Of a stretch of DNA of 49,196 bases, positions 5,384 through 45,114 are shown in pieces. The notes beneath the pieces are model-generated. The model saw only the letters and a program-made list of their open reading frames with translations. It was not told the origin of the DNA and did no database searches. The position numbers and the translations under genes are program-made. Source of the DNA: Candidatus Hydrogenedentota bacterium. GTDB lineage: Bacteria > Hydrogenedentota > Hydrogenedentia > Hydrogenedentales > JAJRTN01. Numbering within the stretch: position 1 is the first letter of the stretch; the number at the start of each line of letters is the position of its first letter. The DNA lies in the NCBI GenBank assembly GCA_024278275.1, contig JAJRTN010000125.1, positions 1 through 49,196 of the forward strand, written 5' to 3'.

Positions 5384-5407
5384 GGGAGCGGCCTCCCGGT
5401 CGACACG

Positions 5408-15357: not shown

Positions 15358-15361
15358 GTTA

Positions 15362-17821: not shown

Positions 17822-17850
17822 GCGTTTGTTCTGATGGACGTTCGTGGATG

Positions 17851-19557: not shown

Positions 19558-19646
19558 GGGTAGTGTTCCATATCCGCGCCGCCATGTCGCGCCAGGCAGC
19601 AATGTGGTAGTATTGCCACCCGTATTCAACCCAGGGAGACATTGTG

Positions 19647-20528
19647 ATGATCAGGATACTCACCACCCTGACGCTGGGGGTCCTTTCGGCTACAAGCCAG
19701 GCGGAACCGGTACGCGACACCTTCACCCTCTGGCAACTTCCCCAGCAAAGCCCGACACAGATGATGTCCTATGTCATCCGCACGGTGCATGACAGGATCA
19801 TCGTGATCGACGGGGGCAATGACGCCGAGGCGCCCTACCTCAAGGGATTTCTGGGCGCGTTGGGCAACCACGTGACGCTCTGGATCATCAGCCACCCCCA
19901 TGTGGACCATATATCGGCGCTCAACCGCATCCTCGAAAAACCGGGCAATCTGCGCATTGACGCCATTGCGGCGGCCCTGCCCGACCCGGACTGGGTCAAG
20001 GAAAGCTGCCCAACCGAGATAAACGTGGTGGGCCACATGGAGCAACTCAAGGCGGGCGCGAAAGCGAACAATATTCCGCTGCGCGAACTCAAGCTGGGCG
20101 AAACCTTTGCGATTGACGGCATTCAAAGCAAGGTGATCGGCGTGTGCAACCCGGAGTTTCACGGCAACGGCATCAACAATTCCAGCCTCGTCTGGCGCAT
20201 GTGGGACGAACACAAGTCGGTACTCTTCACCGGCGACATGGGTGCGCAGGCAAGCGAAAAGGTGTTGAACGGTCCGTACCGCGATACGTTGAAGAGCGAC
20301 TACGTCCAGATGGCGCACCACGGCCAGGCGGGCGCCGTGGAAGCCTTTTACGTCGCCGTCGCCCCGAAGTACTGCCTGTGGCCCACGCCCGACTGGCTTT
20401 GGGACAACAACAACGGGGGCGGTAAAGGATCGGGGCCTTGGGTCACCCTGGAAGTGCGTGCTTGGATCGACAAACTCAACGTGCAACGCCACTACATCAT
20501 GAAGGACTGTTTGCAGCGGGTTGATTGA
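19647..20528 (+). CDS. MBL-fold metallo-hydrolase, secreted
   Basis: A signal peptide is present (LTTLTLGVLSATSQA). The protein has HxHxDH (ISHPHVDHISAL), a later His (MAHHGQ) and D/H ligands. It is divergently arranged from the GT39-like gene, with about 90 bp between them. Confidence 0.7.
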   Translation: MIRILTTLTLGVLSATSQAEPVRDTFTLWQLPQQSPTQMMSYVIRTVHDRIIVIDGGNDAEAPYLKGFLGALGNHVTLWIISHPHVDHISALNRILEKPGNLRIDAIAAALPDPDWVKESCPTEINVVGHMEQLKAGAKANNIPLRELKLGETFAIDGIQSKVIGVCNPEFHGNGINNSSLVWRMWDEHKSVLFTGDMGAQASEKVLNGPYRDTLKSDYVQMAHHGQAGAVEAFYVAVAPKYCLWPTPDWLWDNNNGGGKGSGPWVTLEVRAWIDKLNVQRHYIMKDCLQRVD

Positions 20529-20602: not shown

Positions 20603-22039
20603 TTATTCGTACAGCCGGACCCTTGCGTAGTGGATGCCTTTTCCTTCCGCATGGGTGCCGAGGAGATCAACCATTCTCGATGGCGGTGACCCGGCACGGA
20701 CCGTGGCCGTGAAGTAGTTGTTCATCGGGAAGCGTAGCGGCACGCGAAGTGGTGGACCGGGTGTTCCCTCCGAATCAAGCTCGAGTATCCGGTTCTCCGA
20801 AACCGGCCGGCCTGCGGTGTCCGTGCCGCCGACGTAATAGAAGACGAAAAGGCGATTGTCCGGCGTGGCTTGAAAACGGGGCCGCGCGGGGATCTCCGCC
20901 GACTTGCCTTCCTCGGCCAGCATCAGGGTGCGACGCGTTACCACGTTGCCTTCGCGGACCACGGCGTATTTCATGGCGTGACGCTGTACGGCATCCGGGA
21001 AGAAACGTTCGCGCAGCCGCTCGTCAATCGCGCGCTCGGTCCAGACGATATGCGCCGCGCCGTCGGGCGCCAGCCAAAGATCTCCCGGAGTAATCCGTCC
21101 GCCGGTCTTGTCGGTGCTGGCAATCTCGAGCCAGTCATTGAACCGTCCCGTCAGGATATCCGGTGACCACGTGTAAAACAGTCTGCGGAAATCGTAATCC
21201 CACTTGCGCCCCGTAAGCTCATGCTTAAACGCGCGCCACGCCTCGTAAGGTTCCATAATATCGCTCACCCCGCAGAAATACACCGCGCGGTTCTTCAACG
21301 CCACATTGGGGTAGCAGACTCGGATCGGCTGGGGCGTGTCGTATTCCGCGCCCCACGGCCACTTCAACTTTCCTTGACTCAGCCATTGGCCATCGCTGCT
21401 TCGAAAGGCCCATTCCGCGTGGGTATAACCGATGTTCTGGAAGAGGATGAGTTCGCGGGCAACGCCGTCGGCGGCGAAGCTGCGGTAGGAGTGTTCGGTG
21501 AATTCCGGCGTACCGTCCCAGACCGGCAGAATGATCGTGGGCGTTTTCCTTGGGTCCGCCGTGACGAATTCCAGGATTGCCGGGCGGGCGGGACCACCGT
21601 ACTGGCTTGGATCGCTCACCAGGGTCGGGTTGACCGACAAGAAGAGGCGTCCATCGGGAAACACGGCGAGTGGAGACGGTTCCCGCGTTCTATCCTTCGG
21701 ATCAGCGCCCACCTGTCGCCATCCGCTCTTGTCACGCTGGAACAGCGTCCAACGGCAGTTGTTAAGCGGTCTGGCGTTCTCGAGGAGCTCTATCCCGCTG
21801 GCGAAGAGATTGTCCCCGATGCGAACCAGGCACGTCGAACCGTGACACCACATGGGCCCGGCGCCGTTGTTGGCCGGCTCATACTGGTAGACCATCTCCT
21901 CCGCTTCCACCACCGGCTGGAGGGGGGAAGGTTCCGCGGCGGAACCCAATGGACTGAAAACGATGGTCAGAAACATGGCGCAGACCGAGCCGCGGCCTAT
22001 TCGAGGAGCCCCGTTCAATTTCGCGCAACTGTCTGACAT
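20603..22039 (-). CDS. hypothetical exported protein
   Basis: The start is at MSDSC..RIGRGSVCAMFLTIVFSPLGSA, a signal peptide. No domain was recognised by eye. It sits at the edge of the glycan-degradation cluster. Confidence 0.4.
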   Translation of the reverse strand: MSDSCAKLNGAPRIGRGSVCAMFLTIVFSPLGSAAEPSPLQPVVEAEEMVYQYEPANNGAGPMWCHGSTCLVRIGDNLFASGIELLENARPLNNCRWTLFQRDKSGWRQVGADPKDRTREPSPLAVFPDGRLFLSVNPTLVSDPSQYGGPARPAILEFVTADPRKTPTIILPVWDGTPEFTEHSYRSFAADGVARELILFQNIGYTHAEWAFRSSDGQWLSQGKLKWPWGAEYDTPQPIRVCYPNVALKNRAVYFCGVSDIMEPYEAWRAFKHELTGRKWDYDFRRLFYTWSPDILTGRFNDWLEIASTDKTGGRITPGDLWLAPDGAAHIVWTERAIDERLRERFFPDAVQRHAMKYAVVREGNVVTRRTLMLAEEGKSAEIPARPRFQATPDNRLFVFYYVGGTDTAGRPVSENRILELDSEGTPGPPLRVPLRFPMNNYFTATVRAGSPPSRMVDLLGTHAEGKGIHYARVRLYE

Positions 22040-22719
22040 GAAAAGAATCCTTTCCTGGATAGTCCTAAAAAAAGCGGGGAAGTTCAGGGCCATGACACAC
22101 GCTTCAGTCCCTTCCCCGTGAAGTCCTGTACAGATGGTCACGAAAACGTGTCGTTGCCTTCGCCATTCCCGCGAACGGGGGAATCACTGAAAAAGAGCGA
22201 AGTCACGCCGTCGCCCCACCGGCTTCTCCCCGATGCGTGGCATGACCCTATTCCCTGCCAGTTTACGGCACGCCCATGGCGTACTACCTTTTGAAGTATC
22301 CAGCCTATCACTGTTCGCCGGAATTTGGAAGGGCCCTTTTCCGGCGTGTTATTTGCGAAAAGGTGATTTTCAGCAGGACCACCGCATGATCCGGTATGTT
22401 GCGGCTCGACGAGCCGAAACATACGAAATACCGGGACCGAACGCGGTCCTACGGATGGCACGTAAAGCGAGCCTCCATTTCGCAAATGCCTCACCAAACC
22501 CAAACCTTGACAACGGGACCATCATGTCGTAAAACAGATCGATGGCGCGCCAAAGCCCACCCCACAAAACTTTCATCCCTCGCCCGCGAACAGGAATACT
22601 ATGAGAGGGGGGCTGTTTCTGGATGGCTTGCATATCAACCGACACGTTCCTTCGCGGGAATGGCGGCAGGGCGGTGCATGGGGCGCGCGGTCAAACACGG
22701 AGGAAAAACGGTGGGCAAG

Positions 22720-24216
22720 ATGGCACGACGCGAGTTCGTGGGCGGGTCGGTTTTCGCGGGGCTGACGGCGTCTTTGGTTATGGGCGGGGCTGACGGCCAA
22801 TCTTCGGTGAAATCCAGAGAAAGCCCCGTCATTTCCGCCGGGAGGCCCCGCCCCAATGTGTTATGGATCCAGACGGATGAGCAGCGGCCTGATTCCCTGG
22901 GGTGCTACGGATCCTCCTGGGCGCGCACGCCCAACCTGGACCGACTCGCCCAGCGAGGGACCACCTTTCATGAGTGCCACGTGCAGAGTCCCGTCTGCGT
23001 GCCCAGCCGCACGTCGATGCTCATGGGCAAGTACCCGATGGAGATGGGGATCCTGTGGAATGAGACGCAGTTCAAGGACGGGGTCTTGGACCCGGAGGAA
23101 AAGAGCTTTGTAAACCTGTTCGCCGACGCGGGGTACCGCACCGCAAGTATTGGAAAATGGCACACCCCCAACCACCCGACCTGGCAGGAGAACGAGGACT
23201 TCATCTTGTTCAACGTATCCGGTACGGGGAAGGGTACGGTGGAGGTGGCCGACTGTTTCTCCCTTATGGCGCCCTACTCGGAGTCCGAGCATCGCGTGAT
23301 CAAAAGAAAGGGTTCATCCCCCGTCATCATGAGCGGCATCTATCCCTACCATGACTGGGGAGCTACGCCCTCCGGCCATGTTACCGACCGGGCCATTGCC
23401 TGGCTGAAAGAAGCGGCCGGTCACGATCAGCCGTTTTTCTTGCGTGTTTCGCATCTGTGGCCTCACTCTCCGGTACTCGTCCCGCGGCCTTGGGACAAAT
23501 TGTACGCCCCCGCCGATATGCCGTACCGGCCTTTCAACCGGCAAGCCTATGAGAGCCGATCCGCCTACGACCGCGGTCTCTACAACACGCAGGAAACTTC
23601 AAAGATCCCGGAAAGTACCTGGCGAAGGATTCTGGCGGATTACTATGGGCTCTGTGCCTATTTGGACCACGAAGTAGGCCGGCTGATGCGAGCGCTGCAA
23701 GCGTTGGGGATCCATGAGAACACGGTGGTGGCCTTCAATGCCGACCATGGGAAAAGTCTGGGGGAAATTGGGTTGAGCGAGAAGGGAAACTTTGACCGCG
23801 AGGTATGGCGGGTTCCCTTCCTCCTGTCGTTTCCCGGGCACGTTCCCGAGAACAGCCACCGCCACGACCTGATGGAACTGATGGATTTCGGGCCTACCCT
23901 GTGTTCCCTGGCCGGGATCGATTTTCCCGCCGGCATGGGAGGACGCGATTTGTTCAATTCATCGGAACCGGAAGCGGTTTTTGGCGTCATTGAACTGATT
24001 GGACGAAGGCGCGCGGCCATTCGAACCCGGCAATTCCGGTATGACTACACGGTGCTTCGCGGGGGCAAGAAGGCCGGTCCCGATGAATATGACGCCAATC
24101 TCATCGATCTCGACAACGATCCCTTTGAAGAACACAACCTGGCGAATGTCCCCGAGTACGCGGCCACGGCGGCCTGTTTGCGGGAAAGAATCGAGCAATG
24201 GCTGGCGTCTTCCTGA
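22720..24216 (+). CDS. sulfatase (formylglycine-dependent, arylsulfatase family) with Tat-type signal
   Basis: The N-terminus reads MARREFVGGSVFAGLTASLV, a twin-arginine-like signal. The C-x-P-x-R formylglycine motif (SPVCVPSRTSMLMGKYP) is present, as are metal-ligand regions (WIQTDEQRPD, ADHGKS). Confidence 0.8.
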   Translation: MARREFVGGSVFAGLTASLVMGGADGQSSVKSRESPVISAGRPRPNVLWIQTDEQRPDSLGCYGSSWARTPNLDRLAQRGTTFHECHVQSPVCVPSRTSMLMGKYPMEMGILWNETQFKDGVLDPEEKSFVNLFADAGYRTASIGKWHTPNHPTWQENEDFILFNVSGTGKGTVEVADCFSLMAPYSESEHRVIKRKGSSPVIMSGIYPYHDWGATPSGHVTDRAIAWLKEAAGHDQPFFLRVSHLWPHSPVLVPRPWDKLYAPADMPYRPFNRQAYESRSAYDRGLYNTQETSKIPESTWRRILADYYGLCAYLDHEVGRLMRALQALGIHENTVVAFNADHGKSLGEIGLSEKGNFDREVWRVPFLLSFPGHVPENSHRHDLMELMDFGPTLCSLAGIDFPAGMGGRDLFNSSEPEAVFGVIELIGRRRAAIRTRQFRYDYTVLRGGKKAGPDEYDANLIDLDNDPFEEHNLANVPEYAATAACLRERIEQWLASS

Positions 24217-24474
24217 GCCCCGGGACATCCGCCGGCGCCCACGGAATCGGGAAGGTTTTCGGAAAGCACGATGATGCACCGGGATGTCTCGTCAGTCCTT
24301 CGCCCGGATACTTCACCAGTCTCCTGTTGCGCACGCGTATTCCGGGCCATCTCAAGAACTTGTCTTTCCCGGCGAACTCGACGTGCAGCTACACGCTGTC
24401 GTCCGTCTTGCTTCGCCAAGCCTTTGACCGGACCCCAATCTACACAGGCTCACGAAATGGGTGAAATGTCCGGG

Positions 24475-26370
24475 TTAGACGCCGTCGGAGAGGTCGTGGA
24501 ACCAGTCCTTGCAGTGAATTCCAAGCTCTTGACGTGGGTTTCGATGCGATTTGAGGCCCAGCGTGAACTTGAAGTCCACGCCTTCGCGAATGAGCTTCAG
24601 AAGAAGCGTGTTGTTCCCTTTTTTTAAGCCAACCTCGAAGAAGCTGTTCCATGGCGCCCACATGAGGTGTTCACGACGCTCGCCGACCAGTTCCCCGTTG
24701 AGGTAGATGCGAAATGGGTTGGTGTGCCCGATGGTCAGTGTGGCCGGCTGGTCCCTGTCACTGATGATGGTGCGTGCGCAGTAGGCGCACCAGGCGCCTT
24801 CCAGGCCGATTAGACGCTCGGGAGCGACTTCATAGGCATAGGAAGGAAGAAGGGCGGGGCGCCCGAGGAGCCGGGAGAACTCGGCGTGCAGGCGGTCTAT
24901 ATCCAGGTTCGGCTCGGGCAGATAATCCCGGTCCAATGAAGCATAGTGGTGGTTGATGCAGCGGAAAAAGCCGCGCTCCTTTGCCTCTTCCGTCCAAGCG
25001 TCAAAAAACACACCAAGCAAGCGGTACATGCCCGCGCCGGCGACGCCAAATTCCTTTTTGCCTTCGGGTCCCATTCCCGCGACGGACAGGGTGAAGCGGT
25101 GAGACATGGGCCACTCGGAGATGCCGTCGGGCGCGCGAAGGGAGAATCGTCTGTCGCGGCACCCCCCGCTTAAAGCGGTCTCACCGGGCGCGATGGCCCA
25201 ACCCGCCGGGCCTTTAAGCGTCAGCACGGCATCATCCGGGACCTTTCCCTTCACGGAGACGTCCACCTCAAGCGTATCGCCTGGCGCGGCACAGGGAGTC
25301 CCCCGGTAGCGTATCTGGTAAATCACTTCCGGTGCTCTCGCGCTTTCCGGCAGCGGATCAACAACGGGCGCCCCGGTGATTTCCACGCCGCTGGCGCACG
25401 CATGACCGAGAAGGATGCCCATCCGGGCGTTATCGCGCGCCAGCGCCGACAGGGTCATCTCCGGACGGTGGTAATCAATCCCCATGATGAGTTCATCGCC
25501 GACAGGTTCCCGCATCGCGGCGGGTATGTTCCTGGCACCGAGAATCTGGCCGAGGAAGGCGCCGGTAGTGGCGAGGGTGGAGTCAACATCGTAGGCGCAT
25601 GCGAGGCCGGCGCGCATGGTCGCTTCGAAATCGTTCTCCCCGTAGAGCAGAGCGAGAAAGATGATGGGGATGTTCGCGTAGGTATCGCAAGCCTCGGGTT
25701 TCGCGCCCAGAAGCAGGTAGCGATCCCGCGCTTCGCGCAGGGACAGACCTTGGTCATGAGCCTCCATGACGGCGTCGATGAGACGCCGAAGCGGGTATTT
25801 CCTTGGCATGAAGTGCAGGCAGATCTCGATCAGGCGTCGAATATCCGAGATCGTGAAAGCCATCGCCGACATGGCCGCGAACATCTGCTCCATCGCAATT
25901 GCTTCCGGCCCATGATCAAGCCCGCCGTCCAGTTCGGCGAAACGCGCGGCCAGGTCGGGGGCGCCGGGAAAACTGTAGCCCCAGATCTCGGAACGGATGA
26001 TGCAGCCCATGCCGGTGTCGTAGAACGCATTGTTGTATTTCCCGGACATGGGCGGCTGGATGCCCAGGCGCCAGTTTCGGCGGAAGTTCCCGTATTCGCA
26101 GAAGGGGTACCAACAGTATTCCAGCCAGGCATCTGCCAGGTCCTCGGGCTGAAGATGGGGGCCCTTCTCCTCCAGCACCTTCAGCCAAAGCACCGGGATA
26201 TCAAGATCATCGTTGGGCGGCACGGTGTCCGGAAAGAGTTCACCGGGGCCGACCTCAATCCAGTGTTTCCGGCCCTCAAAGCGCGCGCCGATGGTGCCGC
26301 CGATACATTTGCCCAGCCAGCCGCCATGGATCTTGTCCAGGTAGGTTTCGTATTCGATTAGCATGGTCAT
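24475..26370 (-). CDS. ADP-ribosylglycohydrolase-fold protein with C-terminal beta-rich extension
   Basis: The N-terminal motif IHGGWLGKCIGGTIGARFEG and the later D..S/T-rich metal-binding region (YDVDSTLATTGAFLGQ) are typical of the ARH/DraG fold. The protein is 631 aa, much longer than canonical ARH enzymes. Confidence 0.6.
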   Translation of the reverse strand: MTMLIEYETYLDKIHGGWLGKCIGGTIGARFEGRKHWIEVGPGELFPDTVPPNDDLDIPVLWLKVLEEKGPHLQPEDLADAWLEYCWYPFCEYGNFRRNWRLGIQPPMSGKYNNAFYDTGMGCIIRSEIWGYSFPGAPDLAARFAELDGGLDHGPEAIAMEQMFAAMSAMAFTISDIRRLIEICLHFMPRKYPLRRLIDAVMEAHDQGLSLREARDRYLLLGAKPEACDTYANIPIIFLALLYGENDFEATMRAGLACAYDVDSTLATTGAFLGQILGARNIPAAMREPVGDELIMGIDYHRPEMTLSALARDNARMGILLGHACASGVEITGAPVVDPLPESARAPEVIYQIRYRGTPCAAPGDTLEVDVSVKGKVPDDAVLTLKGPAGWAIAPGETALSGGCRDRRFSLRAPDGISEWPMSHRFTLSVAGMGPEGKKEFGVAGAGMYRLLGVFFDAWTEEAKERGFFRCINHHYASLDRDYLPEPNLDIDRLHAEFSRLLGRPALLPSYAYEVAPERLIGLEGAWCAYCARTIISDRDQPATLTIGHTNPFRIYLNGELVGERREHLMWAPWNSFFEVGLKKGNNTLLLKLIREGVDFKFTLGLKSHRNPRQELGIHCKDWFHDLSDGV

Positions 26371-26388
26371 CCCTCCGAGCGTGGTTCG

Positions 26389-28725
26389 TCATTCAGTTTT
26401 GTAACGGTAATTGAAGCGGCCAAAGGGGGCGCTGTCGCCGTTCAGGGTAAAGGCATCGATATCGTCCTCAAGCCGGAAGTTGTCGGCCCACTTGAATTCA
26501 ATGTCCAAGGCGTGATTTTCCGAAAGGCCAAGGGACTTCCGCCCAACGGCAAGCATGAGTTCATTAGCCTGTACGGCAAACCGTGCCGTGTCCCTGGGCT
26601 GCCAGTTCCAGCCGTTGGCCGTGTGTTCCACGACACTGGTCGCGCCATCCAACAGTCTGCGGTTGATGGCGATGTCGTAGCCTTCCCAGCCGGTCGCGGG
26701 ATCGCGGTCGGTGTTGATGAAAAGGACCATCCAGTCCGGGTCGCTATAGGGCGACATGGCTTCGCGTGTCTTGACATAAAAGTAGAGCTTCCCTGCGTCG
26801 CGTGCCACCTTCGACAGGATGATGTCGTTGCGCCCGGTGGCGTTTTGATAGCGGGTCACCGTGTTGAAGCCGGGATGGTCGCGGTGTACCGTGTCGCCCA
26901 TGTTGTCGCGGTATTCCGGGCTGACGGCGGACCACTGCGAGAAGGATCCCGTGATGTCGATGGATCTTGGCCGCGATGCAACGGGTAATGCCCTGGCCCC
27001 TTTGAAGCGGCGAATGTAGTTGACCATCTGATAATAGTAGTTGTCACTATATCCACCTTTCATGGGTTCCACGTCGCGGCTGCCGACCTGGTCATAGGCA
27101 TCGCAGAACATGACGGGCACGTTTGTCTCGCCAATGGGTTCCGACAGTCTCCCGGCGAACCACTCGTTCCAACCTGTAACGAAGATGAAAGCCGGGTCGG
27201 CCTGCAAGGCACGGTCCCATTGTTCCGCGAAATTGTAACCGTGGCGCACGGCGCCGGGGGACCTGTCGTTTTGGCCCTCGTGGTAGTTGCGACTGCGGGA
27301 ACGTGGGTCGCTGAAGAGACGCACGCCGTGAACGCCCAGTTTATGGCCCGCCGATGGCGGCAAAAACGTCCATGCGGGCGCGTTCTCATCCGCGCCCGCG
27401 CGACGCCGGTATTCCTCCACTTCCGCTTCGGTGATGGCATTCTGGGCGACGCCAACGGCCATCTCCTCGGGCTGGCCCTTTTCGTCCGGGAAAACGTTCT
27501 GCGGGTACGCCTGAAGCCAACCCCACACGTTGCCGCCCGTTGAGCCGGCGAACATGGAGGGCTGAGGCGTCCTGAAAGTAAAGAAATCGCGCATGGACGG
27601 TTGACCGGGGTTGACGGTGTCAATGCGGATGGTCCGGTCCCCGGCAATGGCGACACCATCGGCAAAGGCTGAGCCCGCCGCATAGACATCACCGGTATGG
27701 CTCCACCAGCCGATTTTCCCCCGTGCCCCGGAGGCCTCCAGGTAGTAGCTTCCGGCCGGCAGGGCTTCCCCGGACTTCAGCGACACCCACGCATTATCCT
27801 GGACGGCTTCAAAGGATTTACTGATAAGCCGTTTGCCCTCGGGACCATCCCTGAAAAGTGTCAGCGTCATGGCGGAATCGGTCTCCGCATAGGTGGGAAA
27901 GCACCCCCCCACGCCGTCAAAGGATTTGCCCACGGTGAAGGATTGCCCAAGCGTGTGGCCGGGCTTCAGCTCGTTGGGCGTGTTGCGTTCCATGTTTCCC
28001 TCGCCATCGGACACCATGTCCGGATTGGCGAGAATAAGCGGTTTTCCTTCCCAACGAAACCACAAGTCTTCATAACGTCCTTTCGAGTAGAGCTTATCGT
28101 AGAGTTCCCTGACCGTGCTCCCCGGGTCCCCGAATGGCGCCAGGAAAGCCACATAGGGCGTGGCGTTTCCTTCGGCGCGTACCGCCTCGAGCGTGTCGAA
28201 AAGGGCGGTGTAGTTCTCTTCGTAGATGAGTCTGTTGCTGACATCAAAGATGAGCGTATCCACGCCCGCATCCGCCAGCATCTGCGCATGCTTGCGCAGG
28301 ACCCACCGGTCATCCCCAAGGTAGTATCCAAAGAGGGGCTCTCCCCAGTGATGAGGCGCGCCTATCGGTCCCCAAAGCGGACTGTCCTTCTTTTGAGCCG
28401 CCTCCGGGTCCATGTTCAGGATGCGGGTAACATCCCAAGGCCCCCCGCGTACATGCGCGCCGTGCCACAGAAAGTAGAAGATGCCCACCCAGCGGTTGCT
28501 TCGGGGAGGGCCAACCTCCTCATGTGTTGCGACGCGCCTTCCCAAGGCGTCCGTCGCCGCCCACGTGTCGCTGTAGTTATCCCATGGTGCATGGAAGCGG
28601 CTGCCAAGCGTCGCCTCCTGCCCCGTGGCGTGGGCCGCCGCAAATGCGGAAATCAGCATGGTCAGCGTGAGAAAACGGGTTCGTCCCGTCAAGCAAAAGA
28701 CGCCGTTACCGGATTTCATCTCCAA
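26389..28725 (-). CDS. putative glycoside hydrolase (TIM-barrel GH-like), paralogue of 31791-33995
   Basis: A signal peptide is present (RFLTLTMLISAFAAAHA). The segment WVGIFYFLWHG...HAQMLADAGVDTLIFDV parallels WGSYFFKEMFYWH...HALWLMDMGVDFISADW in the 31791 gene. The family could not be named from sequence alone. Confidence 0.45.
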   Translation of the reverse strand: MEMKSGNGVFCLTGRTRFLTLTMLISAFAAAHATGQEATLGSRFHAPWDNYSDTWAATDALGRRVATHEEVGPPRSNRWVGIFYFLWHGAHVRGGPWDVTRILNMDPEAAQKKDSPLWGPIGAPHHWGEPLFGYYLGDDRWVLRKHAQMLADAGVDTLIFDVSNRLIYEENYTALFDTLEAVRAEGNATPYVAFLAPFGDPGSTVRELYDKLYSKGRYEDLWFRWEGKPLILANPDMVSDGEGNMERNTPNELKPGHTLGQSFTVGKSFDGVGGCFPTYAETDSAMTLTLFRDGPEGKRLISKSFEAVQDNAWVSLKSGEALPAGSYYLEASGARGKIGWWSHTGDVYAAGSAFADGVAIAGDRTIRIDTVNPGQPSMRDFFTFRTPQPSMFAGSTGGNVWGWLQAYPQNVFPDEKGQPEEMAVGVAQNAITEAEVEEYRRRAGADENAPAWTFLPPSAGHKLGVHGVRLFSDPRSRSRNYHEGQNDRSPGAVRHGYNFAEQWDRALQADPAFIFVTGWNEWFAGRLSEPIGETNVPVMFCDAYDQVGSRDVEPMKGGYSDNYYYQMVNYIRRFKGARALPVASRPRSIDITGSFSQWSAVSPEYRDNMGDTVHRDHPGFNTVTRYQNATGRNDIILSKVARDAGKLYFYVKTREAMSPYSDPDWMVLFINTDRDPATGWEGYDIAINRRLLDGATSVVEHTANGWNWQPRDTARFAVQANELMLAVGRKSLGLSENHALDIEFKWADNFRLEDDIDAFTLNGDSAPFGRFNYRYKTE

Positions 28726-28757
28726 CCTCCTCGTGGGTGCGGCACGACCGTGCTCCT

Positions 28758-31619
28758 TCAGTGTGGGACAAAATAGACCGAGTACTTGAACTGAATGTCC
28801 GATTCAACGCTTGCCGCAATGTCCAGTTCAAAAGACACCGGTCCCGGTGCCGGCGAAATGGTCATACGCCACGCTTGCCAGCAGACCGGATAGGTTTCCT
28901 GTCCAAGCACGGGCCGGGCGCTTAGCGACTGTTCACCCAATCGGCCCCGGACGGTGAAGTGCTCTCCAATGTCGTTCACCATGGATGCCTGCCCGTTCCG
29001 GGACATGGAGGCGGCAATAACCAGGGTTCCGCCGGAGGGCGCTTTGGACAGGCGACCCGAAATGCGTGTCTTGCCCGAAGTGTCTCCGTCGAGGTGCTGG
29101 ACAAGGATTTCTACCGGGCGGCTGGCCTCGGCGAAGCCCTTGGGTATGGGGCCCGCGTCAAACACGCGATCCAACGACGGCGGCTGCCCGGCGGGAACCA
29201 CTTCGAGCAGCACCACTTCAAAGGGTCTCAGGCTGATGGTGGCGCGGCTTCCAAAGTCCCTTTCTTCTCCCTTGAGCCGTGCCGGGGCGGGATACCACCG
29301 GTAGAGATCCCAGCGTTTACCGTCGGGAAGCCCCCATGCCGAATCCAGCTTAAGCGTTATCGCCGTGTCTCCCCAGACACAGTTGTTGATGGCGAGGAAG
29401 GCCCTTTTTCCGTCGGTGCAACGGTATCCATAGGGTTCGTCATTCCAGGGGTTACCCAGGATAAACCGCGGATTCCCGAAGCATTCGGGCCGTGCCTTGA
29501 GCAACCGGATGAAGACCGCGAGCTGTTTCCACTCCGGCTCGGACAACCGGTCGCGGCCGCTCCAGATCTGCGCGAGGAGGCTTCCCCGGCAGAGATCCAT
29601 GACGAAGCCTTCCTGCCATCGCTCCTTGCCGATAGAGCTGTTCCACCACCAGTCCGACAGCCAGATGCCCAGCGAGTCCTTGCCCAGTCTCGGTACCTCA
29701 TCGCAGTACCACTGGGCTTGATCCAGGCCAACGGTGACACTGTCGCGGGCATGGGGCGTGGGATACTCCGCTGGGGTAGAGGCTTCGATCATGACGCCCG
29801 GGTCAAAGAGCGTGTCCGCCCAGATCAGCCACCACGGCGACCGGGAACCCCAGTAAAGCATGATGAATACGTCCGGATTGGCCGCATCCCAGCGCTTGCA
29901 GGCATCCACCATGGCGCTAAACTGGGCTTCCGTCGAATATACTCCCGGAAGGTGTCCATGGCCAGGGCTGTCGCAGTTTCCGTACAGTCCATCCACTTTG
30001 ATCTGCCGGATGCCGTTCTTCCTGATCTGGTATTCGAGGCCCGAGGCAAAGACCGTGCGGTAAGGCTCCGCGGCGAGACAGTGGGCGTTCCCCGACGGCA
30101 TCTTGCAGGCGTTGAGGGCCGCATTCCGGCCCAGGCCCCAGCCGAGATAGGACGTGGAGACCCACAACCCCGGTGCAATGCCCAATTCATCCAGCGCGTT
30201 CTTGATCTTCGTAAAGCCATTGGGGAAGTAGCGCGGCTCGAACTGTCTGAAATTGCCCGCGTGGTCCAGCCAGAAATCGACACTGCACGTATCGAAGAGC
30301 CGCCCCGTTGCTTTCTGGCTTTCGGCCAGGCGAGCAAGGCTGTGCAGCACGTCCTCCTCGCTATTCTGGGAGAACCTTGGATTGTTGAAGTTATTCGGCT
30401 CCAGGGGCCAGGAACCGAAATTCGAGAAGATTGCGTAGGGCCGGTCGTGTCCCCGGACCACGCGTCGCATGTGCCGGCGCAGATAGGCGACAAAACCGGC
30501 CTTCCCCGAACCTGCTTTCGTCACGCCCATGATCACGTCGAAGGCGCGAAAGGGAACGCCCGGCTTCAGCACCGTCCCCGGGTATTGCCGGAGTAATGCA
30601 CGGCCATCGTGGCCCGTGGCCCATCCGGCGGGATGGGCCAGACTCAGGAAGAACTCGTTATCCAGGTACACGGGGAATCCCCGCTCACCGTCGGAAACCC
30701 GTGCGTCTGTGGGATAGTCTCCCAGGCGTGCGTGAAGCAGTCGCCGCGTTTCGGTTCCGGAATGGAGTATCTCCACGGATTTCCGCAACACGGGCGTTTC
30801 ATTGTTCCAGCGGTACGTCACCGTGGCCGAGATGGGCATGCCCCTGGCCGAAAAGCGGAAGACCGCCTCGTAACCATCTTCCTTCTGGTTGAACCTTCCC
30901 CGGGCGGCTTCCCATCGCGGCGTTTCCATGGGGACGCCAATGGTGAGGTACTTCTCGAAGGTTGCCGGCCATTGTATGGGGTCGGGGAGTCCCCGGGTGC
31001 CCCGTGGATCCAGTTCTTCCAGGCGGGGCGAACGGTCCGCAAGCCCTGAGAGTTCCGCAGCGATCTCGTTCTCCTCCCCAAAGCGCACATAGGAATGCAT
31101 GGGCGAGCCGGGCCCCAGGTCGATGACCAGGGGAGCGCGCCACCGTTCCGGCGCATCGCGCACGCCCACCTCGTGGCCGTTAAGCAGCACCCGCATGAAG
31201 CGGTAATCGTAGAGCCCGAATCCGCCCATCGTGAGTGAGAGCGGTTTGCCGCGGGCGTCGGCGGGGATAAGCACCGTGGCCGGGAGTCCGGGTAGCCAAA
31301 TCCGCGATTCGGCGGTGTCCAGATCGATCTCCACTTCACTTCCACCACCGAGGGATATGATCCGTCCCGTCAACCTGTTTTCCCACCGATCGGCGCGCAG
31401 CCCCGCGGACGTATCGAGGGAAAGCGTGAACAGGGGTGATCGTAACTCAACCTTCTGATCGTTTTTCATCACGTGAAATGCCTTCCCAACCGCCTGCGTG
31501 GCGGCGGGTCCCATCATGAGTACAAGGAAGAGCAAGCATATGCCGGGCCTGGAAAACCCGTTGACGCGCGGTCCGTTCTCTTCCCCGAAGATTTTGCCCG
31601 TTACACCCCGGCGCATCAT
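28758..31619 (-). CDS. putative large glycoside hydrolase (clan GH-D / alpha-galactosidase-like, uncertain)
   Basis: The start is at MMRRGVTGK.. with a signal peptide (ICLLFLVLMMGPAATQA). A central region (GIRQIKVDGLYGN) is reminiscent of a GH-D catalytic KxD motif. The family assignment is tentative. Confidence 0.45.
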   Translation of the reverse strand: MMRRGVTGKIFGEENGPRVNGFSRPGICLLFLVLMMGPAATQAVGKAFHVMKNDQKVELRSPLFTLSLDTSAGLRADRWENRLTGRIISLGGGSEVEIDLDTAESRIWLPGLPATVLIPADARGKPLSLTMGGFGLYDYRFMRVLLNGHEVGVRDAPERWRAPLVIDLGPGSPMHSYVRFGEENEIAAELSGLADRSPRLEELDPRGTRGLPDPIQWPATFEKYLTIGVPMETPRWEAARGRFNQKEDGYEAVFRFSARGMPISATVTYRWNNETPVLRKSVEILHSGTETRRLLHARLGDYPTDARVSDGERGFPVYLDNEFFLSLAHPAGWATGHDGRALLRQYPGTVLKPGVPFRAFDVIMGVTKAGSGKAGFVAYLRRHMRRVVRGHDRPYAIFSNFGSWPLEPNNFNNPRFSQNSEEDVLHSLARLAESQKATGRLFDTCSVDFWLDHAGNFRQFEPRYFPNGFTKIKNALDELGIAPGLWVSTSYLGWGLGRNAALNACKMPSGNAHCLAAEPYRTVFASGLEYQIRKNGIRQIKVDGLYGNCDSPGHGHLPGVYSTEAQFSAMVDACKRWDAANPDVFIMLYWGSRSPWWLIWADTLFDPGVMIEASTPAEYPTPHARDSVTVGLDQAQWYCDEVPRLGKDSLGIWLSDWWWNSSIGKERWQEGFVMDLCRGSLLAQIWSGRDRLSEPEWKQLAVFIRLLKARPECFGNPRFILGNPWNDEPYGYRCTDGKRAFLAINNCVWGDTAITLKLDSAWGLPDGKRWDLYRWYPAPARLKGEERDFGSRATISLRPFEVVLLEVVPAGQPPSLDRVFDAGPIPKGFAEASRPVEILVQHLDGDTSGKTRISGRLSKAPSGGTLVIAASMSRNGQASMVNDIGEHFTVRGRLGEQSLSARPVLGQETYPVCWQAWRMTISPAPGPVSFELDIAASVESDIQFKYSVYFVPH

Positions 31620-31790
31620 TTCACCTTGGCGGATCTGGCTTTCCCCGTTCATGCCCGGCCCCAGCGTGGCGGTATTCCAACATACCCATAGGGTTGTCGC
31701 GCCCTTCGATATCCGGTCCCGTCCGCGGAACTCGAAGCATTTCGAGTTCTCGGTGTGCATGCGTATCGGAACGGACATGACGGCAAATCC

Positions 31791-33995
31791 TCAGGGCTTC
31801 CGCAGGGTGAATGGCGTGTCCACGCGCAACGGGACCGGCGTATCCAGGGGTACGTCGGCGTGGTCTCGCGCGAGGGGAAACTTTGTTCGGGCGCCTTCCG
31901 CGATGATCGTCAGGATATGATCGCCCTCAACCACGCGGGAAAGGGCCAGGGAATAGCTGTTTTCTCGAATCCCATGGGCCAACAGGTTATTATCCAGCAG
32001 CAGCGTGAAGGAATCAGGCTTCTTTCCGGCCACTTCCCAACGCACCTCCAGGCTGTTCGCCGTCACTACCTGCCCGGGATTCGGCGGGTAAACAGCCAGT
32101 ACGGTGGTCTCCGGCTCCCGCTCCTTGTACAGGGCGATGAGTGCTTGAGCGACATTGAAGCTTTTATACCCCCATCCCCCGTCATCACCGCGATACCCGT
32201 CCGCGGTTAACGAGACGGGCTCGATGTCGTCGGAGAGTTCCACGCTGTAGGTGTCGCCGTAGAGGTTGCCGGGGTAGGGATAACCCTCAAGCTGGCCGGT
32301 GAACTCGTTCCACTGATGGAGCAGGACGAAGCGCGGTTTGTGCTTCAAAGCCGTTTTGAACGTGTGAATCAGCGTGGTACCGTTTCGGCGGCCCCATGCA
32401 TCATCGGCAAGCCACATACGTGAGCCAAAAAAGCCCGCGGAAGGTGTACAAACCTCCGCCACGCCATCGCGATAGGTGACCACCGGGTCCGGCGTCCCGT
32501 CCATCCAAGACCAGTAGCCGTGGCGGTCTACCTTCGTGAGCTGGAGTTGGGCGCCCATGTAGCGAATGGTGAAATGAGTATCGTCGATGGGGGTGTCGAA
32601 GGCTTCCCAGGCGGGAACGACGGTATTGTGCAGCAATACGATGAGCGGTTTCCCGTCCACCATCACCCACAGTCCTTTGAAGCGGGGATTTCGGATGAAG
32701 TGGTTGTGGAGCCATTCGAGCTCTTCGTTGACGGTCTCCGGGCTGTTAACGGGACCATTTCCGAGGAAGGGCATGATGACCAACTGGGGTGCGGGATAGC
32801 CTTCATCCCGGAGTTGCGCATACACCTCAAGCGTGACTTCGGTCGAATGAATCTGCAAGTTCGCCGCGTCCGAACGGTTCTCCCAATGCTGGCTGCCGTC
32901 TTCCGCGGGAGGGATATAGATGGGCCAGTCGGCGGAAATGAAGTCCACGCCCATGTCCATCAGCCAGAGGGCGTGCTGCCGGATAACGTCGGGGTTGTAG
33001 GATTCGTAGAGGCCCACCATGGGCACGGCCTGCGTGTTGTGCCAGTAGAACATCTCCTTGAAAAAGTAGCTGCCCCACTGCATGCCGACGAGATGGTCCG
33101 GGTCGCGCCGTGATGGGATCATTCGGCGGGTTACCTGCACGGTGATGGGTTCCGATACGGTGGCGTTCCCAGGAAGCGGTCTGCCTGCAAAGAGATCATC
33201 GCGCCGCACGCCCCCCGGCCAATCCTCGAAGTGAGCCGCTTTCCATACGGCATCCTGAAGCCTTCCCGGGACCCGAACGGGCTGTCCTTTTTCCACCGGT
33301 TCGGGCCAGGCGGCGGGTGGCGCCTCCCAGGCTTCCCAGCGGCGGTCGGTCACCAGGAGGCGTCGCCGGCCGTCGGTCATGTATTCCAGTTGGACCGCGA
33401 CACCCGCGATGCCGGTTCCCTTCTTCGCCTCCACGGCCAGCATATTGCCGCCGCGGCGGAAAAGCCCCGGCGCCACGGAAGTCGTCGTTGCCGAGTCGAT
33501 TCCTTTCGCCATGGCCAGAAGCGTTCCGTTCAGGTAAATACGCGCCGTGTGGTTTGCCGAAGCCCGGAGGCGCGCGGCATCGACCGGCGCTGTTTCCTGG
33601 AAGCGCGTGGCCAGGAAGGCATTTTCGCACGCGGCGTTCTTGGTCCAGACGATGCAGGTGTCCCTGAAACCGGGCAGGGCGCGCACCTGTACCGAGGCCG
33701 GGCCAACGTTTGGGAAGGGCAGGATGATTCGCCCGTGGCCCTCTTCGCCGGTAACCTCGTGCGCCCCCCAGCGACGCCCGTTTACATAAGCGAGAAGAAG
33801 ACAGGAGGCCAGCGGGGCGGCGGATCGGGCGTCGGAGACCTGAACGTCCAGCGACACGGAGCCGCCCATGGGCACGGTTGTTTTATCGGCGGCGACGTCA
33901 ATGCACACGGGCAACGTTTCCGAAAACGCCACGATAGTTCCTATCATCGCCAGACCGAGGGCGGCCGTGCATTGACGGACCATGGAGTATTGCAC
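31791..33995 (-). CDS. putative glycoside hydrolase (TIM-barrel GH-like), paralogue of 26389-28725
   Basis: A signal peptide is present (AALGLAMIGTIVAFS). Conserved blocks are shared with the 26389 gene (GLWVMVDGKPLIV vs WFRWEGKPLILA, and the YGDTYS region). Confidence 0.45.
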   Translation of the reverse strand: MQYSMVRQCTAALGLAMIGTIVAFSETLPVCIDVAADKTTVPMGGSVSLDVQVSDARSAAPLASCLLLAYVNGRRWGAHEVTGEEGHGRIILPFPNVGPASVQVRALPGFRDTCIVWTKNAACENAFLATRFQETAPVDAARLRASANHTARIYLNGTLLAMAKGIDSATTTSVAPGLFRRGGNMLAVEAKKGTGIAGVAVQLEYMTDGRRRLLVTDRRWEAWEAPPAAWPEPVEKGQPVRVPGRLQDAVWKAAHFEDWPGGVRRDDLFAGRPLPGNATVSEPITVQVTRRMIPSRRDPDHLVGMQWGSYFFKEMFYWHNTQAVPMVGLYESYNPDVIRQHALWLMDMGVDFISADWPIYIPPAEDGSQHWENRSDAANLQIHSTEVTLEVYAQLRDEGYPAPQLVIMPFLGNGPVNSPETVNEELEWLHNHFIRNPRFKGLWVMVDGKPLIVLLHNTVVPAWEAFDTPIDDTHFTIRYMGAQLQLTKVDRHGYWSWMDGTPDPVVTYRDGVAEVCTPSAGFFGSRMWLADDAWGRRNGTTLIHTFKTALKHKPRFVLLHQWNEFTGQLEGYPYPGNLYGDTYSVELSDDIEPVSLTADGYRGDDGGWGYKSFNVAQALIALYKEREPETTVLAVYPPNPGQVVTANSLEVRWEVAGKKPDSFTLLLDNNLLAHGIRENSYSLALSRVVEGDHILTIIAEGARTKFPLARDHADVPLDTPVPLRVDTPFTLRKP

Positions 33996-34176: not shown

Positions 34177-35265
34177 TCAGCCGCCTCCGCCAAAGACCGC
34201 GGACCAAAAGCTGAAGGAGTTGCCCACCGTGCCCACGATGCCGCCAATGTCGGAAGCATTGGCAATGGGGAATTTGCTCTTGAACTTGATGAATTCCACA
34301 TGGCCATCCATCCAGAGCACGTTGCATCCGCCGGGGACATGGTTGAAACGCATGATGCCCGTGTCCGCGGCGTGGGTCTGATCAATGCCGGCGGTGGCCA
34401 ACCATTTGTAGATGCCTTCCTCGGAAAAAGCGTCCATCATGATGGGCAAGGTGCTTTGCGCGATGGCCCCGGCCGCCGGGTTGTTGATGTCCGTGATAAA
34501 GAAACGCTCAATGCCGTCTTTCAGGCGGGGAAGGGTTGACGGCCACGGACTGCCATCGTCATCGACCTGCGGGCCGAAGATGGCAAAGATATGGTCCTGC
34601 ACATTGATGTCACTGTTCCAGGGAGCATAATTTCTGAGGTCCACCACGAAGTTGTTGAATTGACTGAAGGCGGTCCCGTCACAGCCTTGGTTGATCATCT
34701 CCTGTCCCGATGTCTGCGGGTTGTCGTAAAAGCCCGGGCGGGCATAGGAGATATTATAGGCCGCGCTGACCCCCCATAAGGTGGCCTCGGTTCGGGCCGC
34801 GTTGGGCACATACCAATACGAAACCGGTTGCGAAAGCATGAAGTTCAAACATGCCCGGTTGTTGTTTTGGCCCTGCGCGATGGTCGCAATGTCCTGAATC
34901 TGCTGGGCGAAATCGTCTTTCACGCCAAAGCGCTCTCCCCAGAGGTCGCCCCGGGGATCCGAAGGACAGACGGCAATGTTTGGATCCGTCCAGTAGTCCG
35001 GGTAGAGCACCTCGCCCGCGTAGGCCAGGTGTGCCGTCGTCCACGATGGGATGTTCACCGTGGAATGACCGGGATAGAGTCCGCCCCGGTCTTCGCCGGA
35101 ATACATCTTGAAGATGATTCCCCACTGCTTGAGGTTGTTGGCGCATGATGCGCGTCGTGCCGCCTCCCGCGCCCGCGCCAGGGCGGGCAGCAAGATGGCG
35201 GCCAGGATGCCAATAATGGCGATGACGACCAAGAGCTCGATGAGTGTAAAGCCTCTCTTGTTCAT
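34177..35265 (-). CDS. DUF1559 / H-X9-DG protein with prepilin-type N-terminal cleavage-methylation domain (type II secretion pseudopilin-like)
   Basis: The N-terminus ([47 protein letters not shown]) is the hallmark of this PVC-superphylum family. A perfect Shine-Dalgarno sequence (AAGGAGA) lies 5 nt before the ATG. Confidence 0.85.
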
Positions 35266-35313: not shown

Positions 35314-35342
35314 TTGACAATATGGGAACTAATTTCTATTAT
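35314..35342 (+). promoter_or_regulatory. near-consensus sigma70 promoter (TTGACA-17-TATTAT) in an AT-rich island
   Basis: TTGACA at 35314-35319 is followed by an exact 17-nt spacer and TATTAT at 35337-35342. It sits in an AT-rich ~90 bp island that contrasts with the surrounding GC-rich sequence. It is oriented toward the AraC gene. Confidence 0.45.
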
Positions 35343-35498
35343 CGATTGTAACCCCGAAGGGATTTGCTGTCCTTAACAGAAGGGCCAAAAACTAGCACCA
35401 CGAGGTCAAGTGCTCCTGCGTCGGGCGGCAATAAACGGATCCGCCTGTTGGGCGAAGACGGAGCTCCCGGCGTGAGGGCGGTGGAGGAATGCGTAGCG

Positions 35499-36422
35499 AT
35501 GCGTGTTGATGCGACCCCCTTGTCCGGAGGGGGGCAGGCTTTTGTCCCGCACTCCGGCTTACGTCTTCATGGGGCGATGCGGTGTGTTGAAGCCGGAGAA
35601 ATCGGGGAACATGAGCACCCGTTTGGTGAACTGGTCCTGGTCCGCCAGGGGCGGGGAGTCCATCGTGTGCGGGGCTGGGAATACCCGCTTGGCCCGGGGG
35701 ATGTTTTCTACGTTCCCGTTGGTCACGCCCATGCGTACCCGGATGTGGACGAATTGCACGTGATGATTTTCGATTTTGATCCGGCCATCTACCTTCACCA
35801 GGTCCAGGAACTCACCCTGATGCCTGGCGCCCTCGGGCTGTTCGGGCCGGACTGGCCCCCCAATCTTTTGTATCATGGGCAAAAGTCTGTTTTTTGCGTC
35901 CATTTACAGGGTGAGGCGTGGGCGCAAGCGGAGAGCCTGGCCGAGTCGCTGTTAAGGTCCTGCGAGCATGATTCGCCGGAAAGACACACGGAGGTTCGTG
36001 CGTGGTTCGCCTTGCTGATCGTTTGTCTTTGCCGTTATTACCCGGAGCACGTATTGCCCACGGGCACCCGGAATGTACCGTTGGCGAAAGCATTGGCCTA
36101 CATCGAGGACCATTACGCCGACGCTCTGACCCTTGACGCGCTGTCCGGCGCGGCCTGTACGTCCCGAAGCTCGCTGCAGCGGGCCTTTCGGAAGCACCTG
36201 GCCTGCACGCCCATGGAATACGTCATGCGCCGCCGAATCGACCGCGCGCGGGAACTGCTTCTCTTTACGGACATGAGCATGACGGCCATTGGGGAAAGCA
36301 CGGGTTTTACCGACAGCAATCATTTTTCCCGGTGTTTTCGACGGTACGCCGGGGAGTCTCCCAGGATGTACCGGAACAAGAACCATGCCTTGGGTCCGGG
36401 TGTCCCCATTAACGATATGTAA
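35499..36422 (+). CDS. AraC-family transcriptional regulator (cupin N-domain plus HTH)
   Basis: Cupin motifs are present (HEHPFGELVLVRQGRG, YVPVGHAHAY). The two C-terminal HTH units read LTLDALSGAACTSRSSLQRAFRK and MTAIGESTGFTDSNHFSRCFRRYAGESP. The start is uncertain; the ORF opens at the TTG at 35364. Confidence 0.7.
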   Translation: MRVDATPLSGGGQAFVPHSGLRLHGAMRCVEAGEIGEHEHPFGELVLVRQGRGVHRVRGWEYPLGPGDVFYVPVGHAHAYPDVDELHVMIFDFDPAIYLHQVQELTLMPGALGLFGPDWPPNLLYHGQKSVFCVHLQGEAWAQAESLAESLLRSCEHDSPERHTEVRAWFALLIVCLCRYYPEHVLPTGTRNVPLAKALAYIEDHYADALTLDALSGAACTSRSSLQRAFRKHLACTPMEYVMRRRIDRARELLLFTDMSMTAIGESTGFTDSNHFSRCFRRYAGESPRMYRNKNHALGPGVPINDM

Positions 36423-36488
36423 AAAAATTCCAGGAGTATATTGCATAATGGTATTTCTTTATGCTACGCTGTCATCCATAAAGGGGCC

Positions 36489-37361: not shown

Positions 37362-37396
37362 GCCATTCCGACAAAAACAAGGAAGGAAGAAGTTCC

Positions 37397-42076: not shown

Positions 42077-42096
42077 CCCCGGGAAAGGAAGAATAC

Positions 42097-43062: not shown

Positions 43063-43108
43063 GATCACCGGAACATTACGCGGATTACACGGGAAGAGAG
43101 GTACGGAA

Positions 43109-44125: not shown

Positions 44126-44135
44126 GGGGACAAGC

Positions 44136-44741: not shown

Positions 44742-44777
44742 CGGTTCATTACGGATGGAAAACCGGGAGATCAGGTC

Positions 44778-45071: not shown

Positions 45072-45114
45072 CGCCCCGGGCGACACACGCACGATCCCAT
45101 GGAGATAAAGCCCC

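Follow-up and report, generated by a model that had tools for sequence, protein, structure and literature searches.

The window analysed here, the 49,196-nucleotide contig JAJRTN010000125.1 of a Candidatus Hydrogenedentota bacterium (GCA_024278275.1), carries a minus-strand series of four tightly spaced genes (33995-24475) that encode three large proteins with glycosidase folds, referred to as P5, P4 and P3 in gene order, and a protein related to ADP-ribosylglycohydrolases (ADPRH-like protein; coordinates are collected in Table 1). Next to it lies a plus-strand locus opened by an AraC/RhaS-like regulator, which combines L-rhamnose-type sugar catabolism with bacterial microcompartment (BMC) genes. 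We propose, with a probability of roughly 0.5, that the series is an AraC/RhaS-type-controlled operon for the use of a rhamnose-bearing heteroglycan, in which three exported glycosidase-fold proteins of unclassified families would act together with a cytoplasmic ADPRH-fold hydrolase and the deoxy-sugar would be catabolised by the adjacent locus. The kind of cluster is familiar, namely an operon of carbohydrate-active enzymes (CAZymes) next to a regulator and beside sugar catabolism. Its parts are less familiar: the four proteins belong to large families without a name, in two of these the catalytic motif differs from that of the closest relatives by structure, and a RuBisCO-like protein (RLP) is found inside a rhamnose-type locus.

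The gene order was established from a listing of open reading frames (ORFs) combined with Pfam and NCBIfam scans. Gaps within the series measure 13 to ~170 nt between P5 and P4, depending on the start codon, 32 nt between P4 and P3 and 18 nt between P3 and the ADPRH-like gene. Because the spacing is tight (13-32 nt) and all genes share one orientation, the four look like one operon and are probably co-transcribed. A pseudopilin-like DUF1559 gene, which also precedes the closest P3 homologue (L001), probably heads the operon, its functional membership being uncertain. The AraC gene diverges from it across a 99-bp intergenic region. A promoter-like site ahead of the AraC gene (35314-35342) matches at 11 of 12 positions and is the sole notable one from promoter and terminator scans, in which the number of sites did not exceed that of shuffled sequence. 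A preliminary description of this DNA had listed a sulfatase, the ADPRH-like gene, three glycosidase-like genes and the regulator in a row; these genes lie where it placed them, except that the sulfatase and the operon are transcribed towards each other and the DUF1559 gene stands between P5 and the AraC gene.

Folds and candidate active sites of the operon proteins

That P3, P4 and P5 are real genes is shown by their homologues, which number from hundreds to thousands. Each protein (778, 953 and 734 aa) begins with a hydrophobic, signal-like segment, in line with the earlier reading of three large secreted proteins. None of them exceeds any Pfam or NCBIfam threshold. Direct sequence searches with the three and with the ADPRH-like protein against the PDB gave nothing meaningful, and NCBIfam had no match for any of the four. 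The earlier term glycosidase-like thus holds by fold and not by family profile, and the glycoside hydrolase (GH) families indeed could not be named. A literature search found nothing relevant on GH99-like or GH36-like families.

P3 and P5 are built around a (β/α)8 barrel of the type seen in GH99 endo-α-1,2-mannosidases/mannanases and GH71 α-1,3-glucanases. Both carry C-terminal β domains, which may or may not correspond to the conserved C-terminal β-sandwich on which the GH71 barrel is tightly packed. Unlike GH99 and GH71 enzymes, P3 has a β-sandwich of ~150 amino acids inserted in the barrel (residues ~240-390) and ends in a CBM9/DOMON-like domain. P5 lacks the insertion and consists of an immunoglobulin (Ig)-like N-terminus, a jelly roll resembling carbohydrate-binding module (CBM) family 67 (~110-250), the barrel (~300-620) and a C-terminal Ig-like domain. 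Against PF16317, P3 scores 15.9 bits (cut-off 33) and P5 gives no match, while weak matches were obtained for 8 of 55 P5 relatives (E 1.2e-5 at best). With the family profile of P5, the GH99 structure 4acz is reached at its NEW motif (E 1e-3). GH71 and GH99 are defined by a D/E-x-x-E catalytic dyad, and substitution of either dyad residue in GH71 lowers activity 200- to 15,000-fold (PMC12394665). In profile alignments, the NE motifs of P3 and P5 coincide with 'FNEWHEG' of GH99 and the first Glu is kept, whereas the place of the second acid is taken by an almost invariant Ala in P3 (W-N-E519-W-F-A522, 70 sequences) and by an invariant Gly in P5 (Q561-W-N-E564-F-T-G567, 55 sequences). Roughly 25 residues after NEW, both families share a conserved S-x-D-I-E-P motif that further distinguishes them from GH99 and GH71; besides the first Glu, the conserved acids of the barrels include D540, D549 and E551 in P3 and D581, D590 and E592 in P5. 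Since the defining dyad is missing, P3 and P5 are relatives of GH99 and GH71 by fold and are not to be filed as members.

The two proteins had been called clear paralogues, which overstates a similarity of 25% identity over 131 aa (BLASTP, E 4e-6). It becomes firm only when the family profiles are compared with each other (hhalign 99.3%, E 1.6e-20, 24% identity over 276 columns), and by these sequence comparisons P3 and P5 are remote homologues. The P3 family comprises at least 3979 relatives of ~50-68% identity in Planctomycetota, Armatimonadota, Chloroherpetonaceae, Omnitrophota and others; all named ones are called 'hypothetical' and a Pfam match was found in none. For P5, the family profile matches two-domain fungal lectins over both jelly rolls (E 4e-24) and residues 133-287, the CBM67 region, of SaRha78A from Streptomyces avermitilis (PDB 3w5m; E 1.9e-14), so that the P5 family module is homologous to CBM67. 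A conserved 'DD' of the family aligns with 'DN' of SaRha78A, presumably its calcium/rhamnose site. A 1.1-Mb contig carries a tandem pair of P5-family paralogues (P0253 and P0246, 731 and 729 aa; L171 7794-12190), with SusC/SusD-like fragments and a gene for a DUF4838 protein close by.

The full-length P4 model (pLDDT 90.4) has the three-domain GH36-like architecture of clan GH-D, that is, an N-terminal β-supersandwich, a (β/α)8 barrel and a C-terminal β-sandwich. P4 is unrelated to P3 and P5 by BLASTP, has no Pfam (including Melibiase) or NCBIfam match at E<=0.01, and its family profile reaches α-galactosidases of the PDB with E 0.025-2 only. An invariant K-x-D motif (K541-x-D543, 60 sequences) is a candidate for the nucleophile motif of clan GH-D (GH27/GH36/GH31); it lies ~55 residues past the segment that aligns with GH36 'FPNGL...GLW', a spacing as in GH36, and D626, D633 and E612 are candidate acid/base residues. 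P4 differs from GH36 and GH27 α-galactosidases in its low identity (10-14%), in an extra GH2_N-like jelly roll within the N-terminal domain and extra C-terminal domains, and in an invariant C549-x4-H554-x-H556 directly after the KxD motif (~29990-29950 (-)). C514 and C713 are also invariant. The Cys/His/His cluster may form a metal site beside the putative nucleophile, a feature not known from GH27 or GH36. Two natural fusions contain a P4-type domain: in P0147 (L004 4040-8434, 1464 aa) it is combined with a signal peptide plus ADPRH domain, and in P0129 (1433 aa) with a GH29 α-L-fucosidase. A 1267-aa neighbour of a P3 homologue (L002) was considered as a further P4 relative and rejected, as tblastn gave no match.

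The ADPRH-like protein matches PF03747 (ADP_ribosyl_GH) over residues 16-284 with 125.9 bits (cut-off 26.2), confirming the earlier assignment of its fold, and extends ~340 residues further. Like DraG, ARH3 and MJ1187, it is matched over the whole catalytic domain and keeps the ligands of the binuclear metal site, with D54 and D261 invariant and D55, D263 and T265 at least 90% conserved in 52 sequences; the family motif 'GyDtDctA' aligns with 'GGDTDS' of MJ1187. Unlike them, it is twice the usual length, its N-terminal ADPRH fold being followed by Ig-like and jelly-roll, sugar-binding-like C-terminal domains, and it belongs to a glycosidase operon. The C-terminus gives weak matches to NPCBM_assoc and GH2_N in some family members, a signal peptide is absent and PDB relatives are only remote (E 2e-6). 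The protein had been described as atypically long, which is right with regard to the usual ADPRH and not with regard to its own family: 431 representative clusters (at 50% identity) match at E<=1e-30, and most of them are 610-670 aa long, match over the full length and have no leader. As judged from sequence, the 631-aa form is thus a member of a large family of such length and not a one-off. The glycosidase operon, the CBM-like tail and the fusion to a P4 domain suggest a glycan as substrate; our literature search on ADPRH-fold CAZymes found nothing relevant.

The adjacent sugar locus and the neighbourhoods of homologues

The AraC regulator, rhamnulokinase-like kinase, class II aldolase and BMC genes reported earlier downstream of the operon are all present. 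The description of a rhamnulokinase/aldolase/BMC operon needs to be widened, however, because an RpiR regulator, the RLP, a sugar isomerase and a pair of pyruvate-dehydrogenase-type E1 subunits also lie between the AraC gene and the shell genes. The best NCBIfam match of the AraC protein is RhaS (105.9 bits, below the cut-off), and the kinase scores 387 bits against rhamnulokinase versus 111 bits against fuculokinase. The locus resembles the PVM-type L-fucose/L-rhamnose microcompartment loci of planctomycetes and verrucomicrobia (PMC11685898) in having aldolase, aldehyde dehydrogenase, shell proteins, kinase, isomerase, regulator and adjacent glycosidases. It is unlike these and the fucoidan or rhamnose clusters of Planctomycetota and Verrucomicrobiota in that its glycosidases are unclassified, not belonging to GH29, GH95, GH78, GH106 or GH107, and that RLP and E1α/β are embedded in the catabolic module. 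The RLP, located between the RpiR regulator and the kinase, keeps the K-P-K and K-D-D-E active-site motifs, its best NCBIfam match being below threshold; no literature linking RLP to rhamnose or microcompartments was found. The E1α/β pair, seen without E2 or E3 between the isomerase and the shell genes, also occurs with the RLP module in L124 and adjoins a P4 homologue in L025.

To place the operon in context, ~170 loci with flanks of up to 10 kb on either side were surveyed, comprising seven individual contexts, 80 species-representative GTDB loci of P4 homologues and 80 metagenome loci of P3 homologues. At three of these loci (Acidobacteriota and Planctomycetota among them), a P3 or P4 homologue is again accompanied by the RLP/kinase/isomerase module, with RLP orthologues of 61-78% identity. 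In L016 (Terriglobia), RpiR (46%), RLP (61%; 2186-3448), kinase (50%) and isomerase (65%) are followed by a TonB-type receptor and the P4 homologue. The metagenomic contig L124 has E1β, E1α, isomerase, RLP (64%; 4599-5951) and kinase and then a P3-like gene. In L087 (Planctomycetaceae), the order is isomerase (72%), GH106 rhamnosidase, RLP (78%; 4567-5754), GH78, an AraC-like gene, the P4 homologue and another GH78. By our own rough Poisson estimate, which assumes at most one such RLP per ~6-Mb genome and ~1.9 Mb of flanks, these three occurrences compare with <=0.3 expected (P ~0.004).

Further neighbours point in the same direction. Rhamnosidases lie within 10 kb at 10 of 160 loci, compared with 2 of 160 for GH29, which is suggestive only, and relatives of the AraC gene adjoin P4 homologues in L169 (41% identity), L087 and L015. 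The link to a 6-deoxyhexose put forward in the preliminary description is therefore retained in part, on the strength of the recurring RLP module, the rhamnosidases of L087 and the CBM67-like module of P5. The accompanying idea that the products feed a metabolosome is not borne out by the survey, since BMC shell, aldolase and aldehyde dehydrogenase genes were found near the homologues at 0 of 170 loci; the recurrent link is thus to the kinase/isomerase/RLP part and not to the microcompartment.

The commonest neighbour of the P4 family (10 of 80 loci) is an oxidoreductase of the Gfo/Idh/MocA type with a twin-arginine (Tat) signal, e.g. in L019 (3782-5086) and L016 (15312-16721). Such a gene directly precedes the ADPRH+P4 fusion (L004 2691-4040), and one near a P3 homologue (L002 3794-5875) is paired with a xylose-isomerase-like TIM protein. 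By analogy, these neighbours are reminiscent of oxidative glycoside-cleavage systems.

Proposed mechanism and competing explanations

We hypothesize that P5 and P3 are exported and would act as endo- or exo-glycosidases through a GH99/GH71-type barrel, in which the first catalytic Glu is kept (E564 in P5, E519 in P3) and the second carboxylate would most likely come from the S-x-D-I-E-P motif (D590/E592 in P5, D549/E551 in P3). P4 would be an exported GH36-like retaining α-glycosidase with D543 of the KxD motif as nucleophile. The binding-like modules, that is, the CBM67-like module of P5, the CBM9-like domain of P3 and the jelly rolls of P4, may hold the rhamnose-bearing heteropolysaccharide, and the ADPRH-fold metallohydrolase would complete the breakdown of imported oligosaccharides in the cytoplasm. 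The sugar set free, L-rhamnose or a similar 6-deoxy sugar, would be acted on first by the isomerase and the kinase of rhamnulokinase type and then by the microcompartment's aldolase and aldehyde dehydrogenase, encoded in the L-rhamnose-type catabolic and microcompartment locus that the AraC/RhaS-like regulator opens. In favour of this proposal we count the operon geometry, the conserved candidate catalytic residues, the CBM67 homology of P5, the Rosetta-stone fusions P0147 and P0129, the recurrence of the RLP module, the gene order of L087, the rhamnosidase and AraC neighbours and the kinase scores.

Several observations weigh against it. The set P5-P4-P3-ADPRH is conserved in none of the ~170 loci: no P3, P5 or ADPRH-like gene lies within 10 kb in any of the 80 P4 loci (0/80), and among the 80 P3 loci only two have a true P5-like neighbour and one a distant P4-like neighbour. 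P3 and P4 homologues are mostly lone genes, and the closest homologues of P4 (65%) and P5 (70%) come from one sample and sit on different contigs with different neighbours. No BMC gene lies around the homologues, and the rhamnosidase enrichment is modest and depends on an assumed copy number. The window P5 itself has 'NH' in place of the family's 'DD' before the 'LNG' strand (33580-33540 (-), residues ~139-152), which may alter sugar or calcium binding. Hydrolase activity of P3 and P5 is not assured given the missing ExxE dyad, the signal peptides of all three proteins were judged by eye, and the evidence as a whole consists of sequence comparisons and structural models.

Some of these points also serve an account in which the adjacency is coincidental, with scattered CAZyme-like genes acting on different substrates and uncoupled from the rhamnose/BMC locus. 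It agrees with the lack of conserved synteny, with the result of neighbour clustering, in which no partner exceeded 10 of 80 loci and none was dominant, and with the diverse contexts of the homologues, which include GH38, GH127, GH2, PBP1 and proteases. Against it stand the spacing and shared orientation of the four genes, which argue for co-transcription, the appearance of the rare RLP module beside P3 or P4 homologues on three unrelated contigs, the P4 homologue of L087 amid three rhamnosidases, the AraC relatives next to P4 homologues and the existence of an ADPRH+P4 fusion. We regard coincidence as possible, though on the doubtful side. Cutting across all accounts is the question of whether P3 and P5 are hydrolases at all or instead carbohydrate-binding proteins or enzymes of other chemistry, such as transglycosylation or lyase-type cleavage. 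The ExxA and ExxG motifs are invariant or nearly so, and the cost of dyad substitutions in GH71 (PMC12394665) lends this idea weight; the barrels nevertheless retain strongly conserved residues, other acids included, as is typical of active enzymes, and we consider a non-hydrolytic role unlikely.

The preliminary description had favoured a sulfated, 6-deoxyhexose-containing polysaccharide (ulvan-, fucoidan- or rhamnan-like). On this reading, the cluster would be a utilisation island for algal glycans such as ulvan, fucoidan or rhamnan sulfate, which the sulfatase would desulfate and the three glycosidases depolymerise, with the deoxyhexose passing to the microcompartment. Its reading of the sulfatase as a Tat-exported formylglycine enzyme is a fair one: the protein starts with the twin-arginine leader MARREFVGG, contains CVPSR as the C-x-P-x-R formylglycine motif and matches PF00884 with E 2e-49 (168.8 bits, cut-off 25), and the domain together with the C/S-x-P-x-R motif identifies an S1 formylglycine-dependent sulfatase. 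In favour of the reading, the gene ends ~260 bp from the 3' end of the operon, a GH29+P4 fusion (P0129) exists, and the best PDB relative of the enzyme, 6hhm (E 2e-35), is an ulvan sulfatase. The use of fucose by means of BMCs and the degradation of sulfated algal glycans are both known from planctomycetes (PMC11685898). Yet the sulfatase gene runs against the operon and is thus a transcription unit of its own. Its best PDB relatives span many S1 subfamilies with similar E (2e-35 to 1e-30), including arylsulfatase, Gal-6-, GlcNAc-6-, GalNAc-6- and carrageenan sulfatases, and because so many subfamilies are equally distant no substrate can be read from it. S1 sulfatases occur at 12 of 160 P3 or P4 loci with 22-30% identity to that of the window, about the chance level for genomes with tens of sulfatases and hence no enrichment. 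Within the window, no known gene for a fucoidanase, ulvan lyase, GH29, GH95, GH78 or GH106 was found. For all three families, most relatives were met in groundwater, bog, fen, peat, lake and digester assemblies rather than with marine algae, and these habitats suit plant or microbial glycans better than ulvan or fucoidan. A sulfated algal substrate is therefore improbable, and we take the sulfatase to be, in all probability, a neighbour unrelated to the operon, with an accessory role at best.

Least probable of all, in our judgement, is a role in envelope or exopolysaccharide processing, in which the secreted proteins would remodel the cell's own surface glycans together with the products of the upstream PMT_2 and GH3+LysM genes and have no part in nutrition. 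These genes lie 5-9 kb upstream, P3 is unusually conserved (~50% identity across phyla), mostly solitary and in that sense housekeeping-like, a GT2 gene adjoins the closest P3 homologue and PBP1 adjoins the P3-like gene of L155. The CBM-like modules, the GH29 fusion, the rhamnosidase and TonB-receptor genes near homologues and the divergently transcribed sugar regulator point to catabolism instead, and the sulfatase gene and U512, a gene for a secreted protein, separate the upstream genes from the operon.

The proposal of a rhamnose-bearing heteroglycan operon can be extended to a joint reading that we regard as possible, though clearly less likely than not. P3 and P5 would found two new GH families in the GH99/GH71 lineage, in which Glu and a carboxylate of the D-I-E-P motif replace ExxE, and P4 would found a further family of clan GH-D, marked by a Cys/His/His site that adjoins the nucleophile. 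The 640-aa ADPRH-fold proteins would be glycan-active, furanosidase-like metallohydrolases and not protein de-ADP-ribosylases. All of them would feed a variant 6-deoxyhexose pathway with RLP and a thiamine pyrophosphate-dependent E1 between the rhamnulokinase-like kinase and the microcompartment.

Other genes of the window and implications

Table 1 Features of the window (positions on the forward strand).
Feature	Position	Strand	Remarks
1331-aa protein	7074-11069	+	Six PKD domains; envelope-related
GH3 + LysM protein	15362-18016	-	NagZ-like GH3, two LysM domains
PMT_2 glycosyltransferase-like, ArnT-like membrane protein	17851-19629	-	
U512, secreted, no family	20603-22141	-	Divergent from sulfatase
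S1 formylglycine sulfatase, twin-arginine leader	22720-24216	+	PF00884; convergent with operon
ADPRH-like protein, 631 aa	24475-26370	-	PF03747; last gene of the apparent operon
P3, secreted (predicted), 778 aa (776/778)	26389-28725	-	GH99/GH71-type barrel
P4, secreted (predicted), 953 aa from MMRRG	28758-31619	-	GH36-like; 1006 aa from alternative ATG 31778
P5, secreted (predicted), 734 aa	31791-33995	-	GH99/GH71-type barrel, CBM67-like module
DUF1559/prepilin-type N-methylation protein (pseudopilin-like)	34177-35265	-	PF07596, PF07963; HX9DG C-terminal motif; first of minus-strand series
AraC/RhaS-like regulator	35364-36422	+	HTH_18, AraC_binding
RpiR/SIS regulator	36441-37211	+	
RuBisCO-like protein (RLP)	37256-38746	+	
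Rhamnulokinase-like FGGY kinase	39293-40801	+	
Xylose-isomerase-like TIM isomerase	40817-41797	+	
E1α	42073-43062	+	Pyruvate-dehydrogenase type
E1β	42974-44125	+	Pyruvate-dehydrogenase type
BMC shell genes, acylating aldehyde dehydrogenase, class II aldolase	44136-48688	+	CcmP-like BMC-T, EutN, Aldedh (PRK15398, 617 bits), BMC, EutN, Aldolase_II

U512, which gives no Pfam or NCBIfam match, has homologues of 65% identity on two metagenome contigs (L155 8622-10025 and L166 8511-9929), in both of which the stop codon of the homologue and the start of a short P3-like gene overlap, an arrangement of translational coupling. U512 may be functionally tied to P3 and be a further member of the set. Upstream of it, a minus-strand ORF (19626-20492, 288 aa) was rejected as a gene, its Arg/Val/His-rich translation resembling an antisense shadow; the overlapping plus-strand ORF (19644-20528, 294 aa) may be real. 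The GH3+LysM and PMT_2 genes are envelope-related and, like the gene for the 1331-aa protein, lie outside the finding. The GC content is 0.65-0.67 at 15000-18000 and 42000-49000 and ~0.60 over the operon, and no mobile-element genes were seen in the window. In its DUF1559 content and its Pirellulaceae-like best matches, the DNA resembles that of a planctomycete.

All four operon proteins come from large, widespread families without a functional name, with hundreds of relatives each for P4 and P5. They occur in Planctomycetota, Acidobacteriota, Armatimonadota, Verrucomicrobiota and others, groups that play a major part in breaking down glycans in soils, peat and fresh water. If the operon could be given a substrate, thousands of 'hypothetical proteins' would be annotated, and the glycosidase classification could gain families, among them a GH99/GH71-like lineage whose catalytic apparatus is different. 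The recurrent pairing with the RLP, in turn, provides a concrete setting in which the role of one such protein, out of the many RuBisCO-like proteins whose function is unknown, can be tested.

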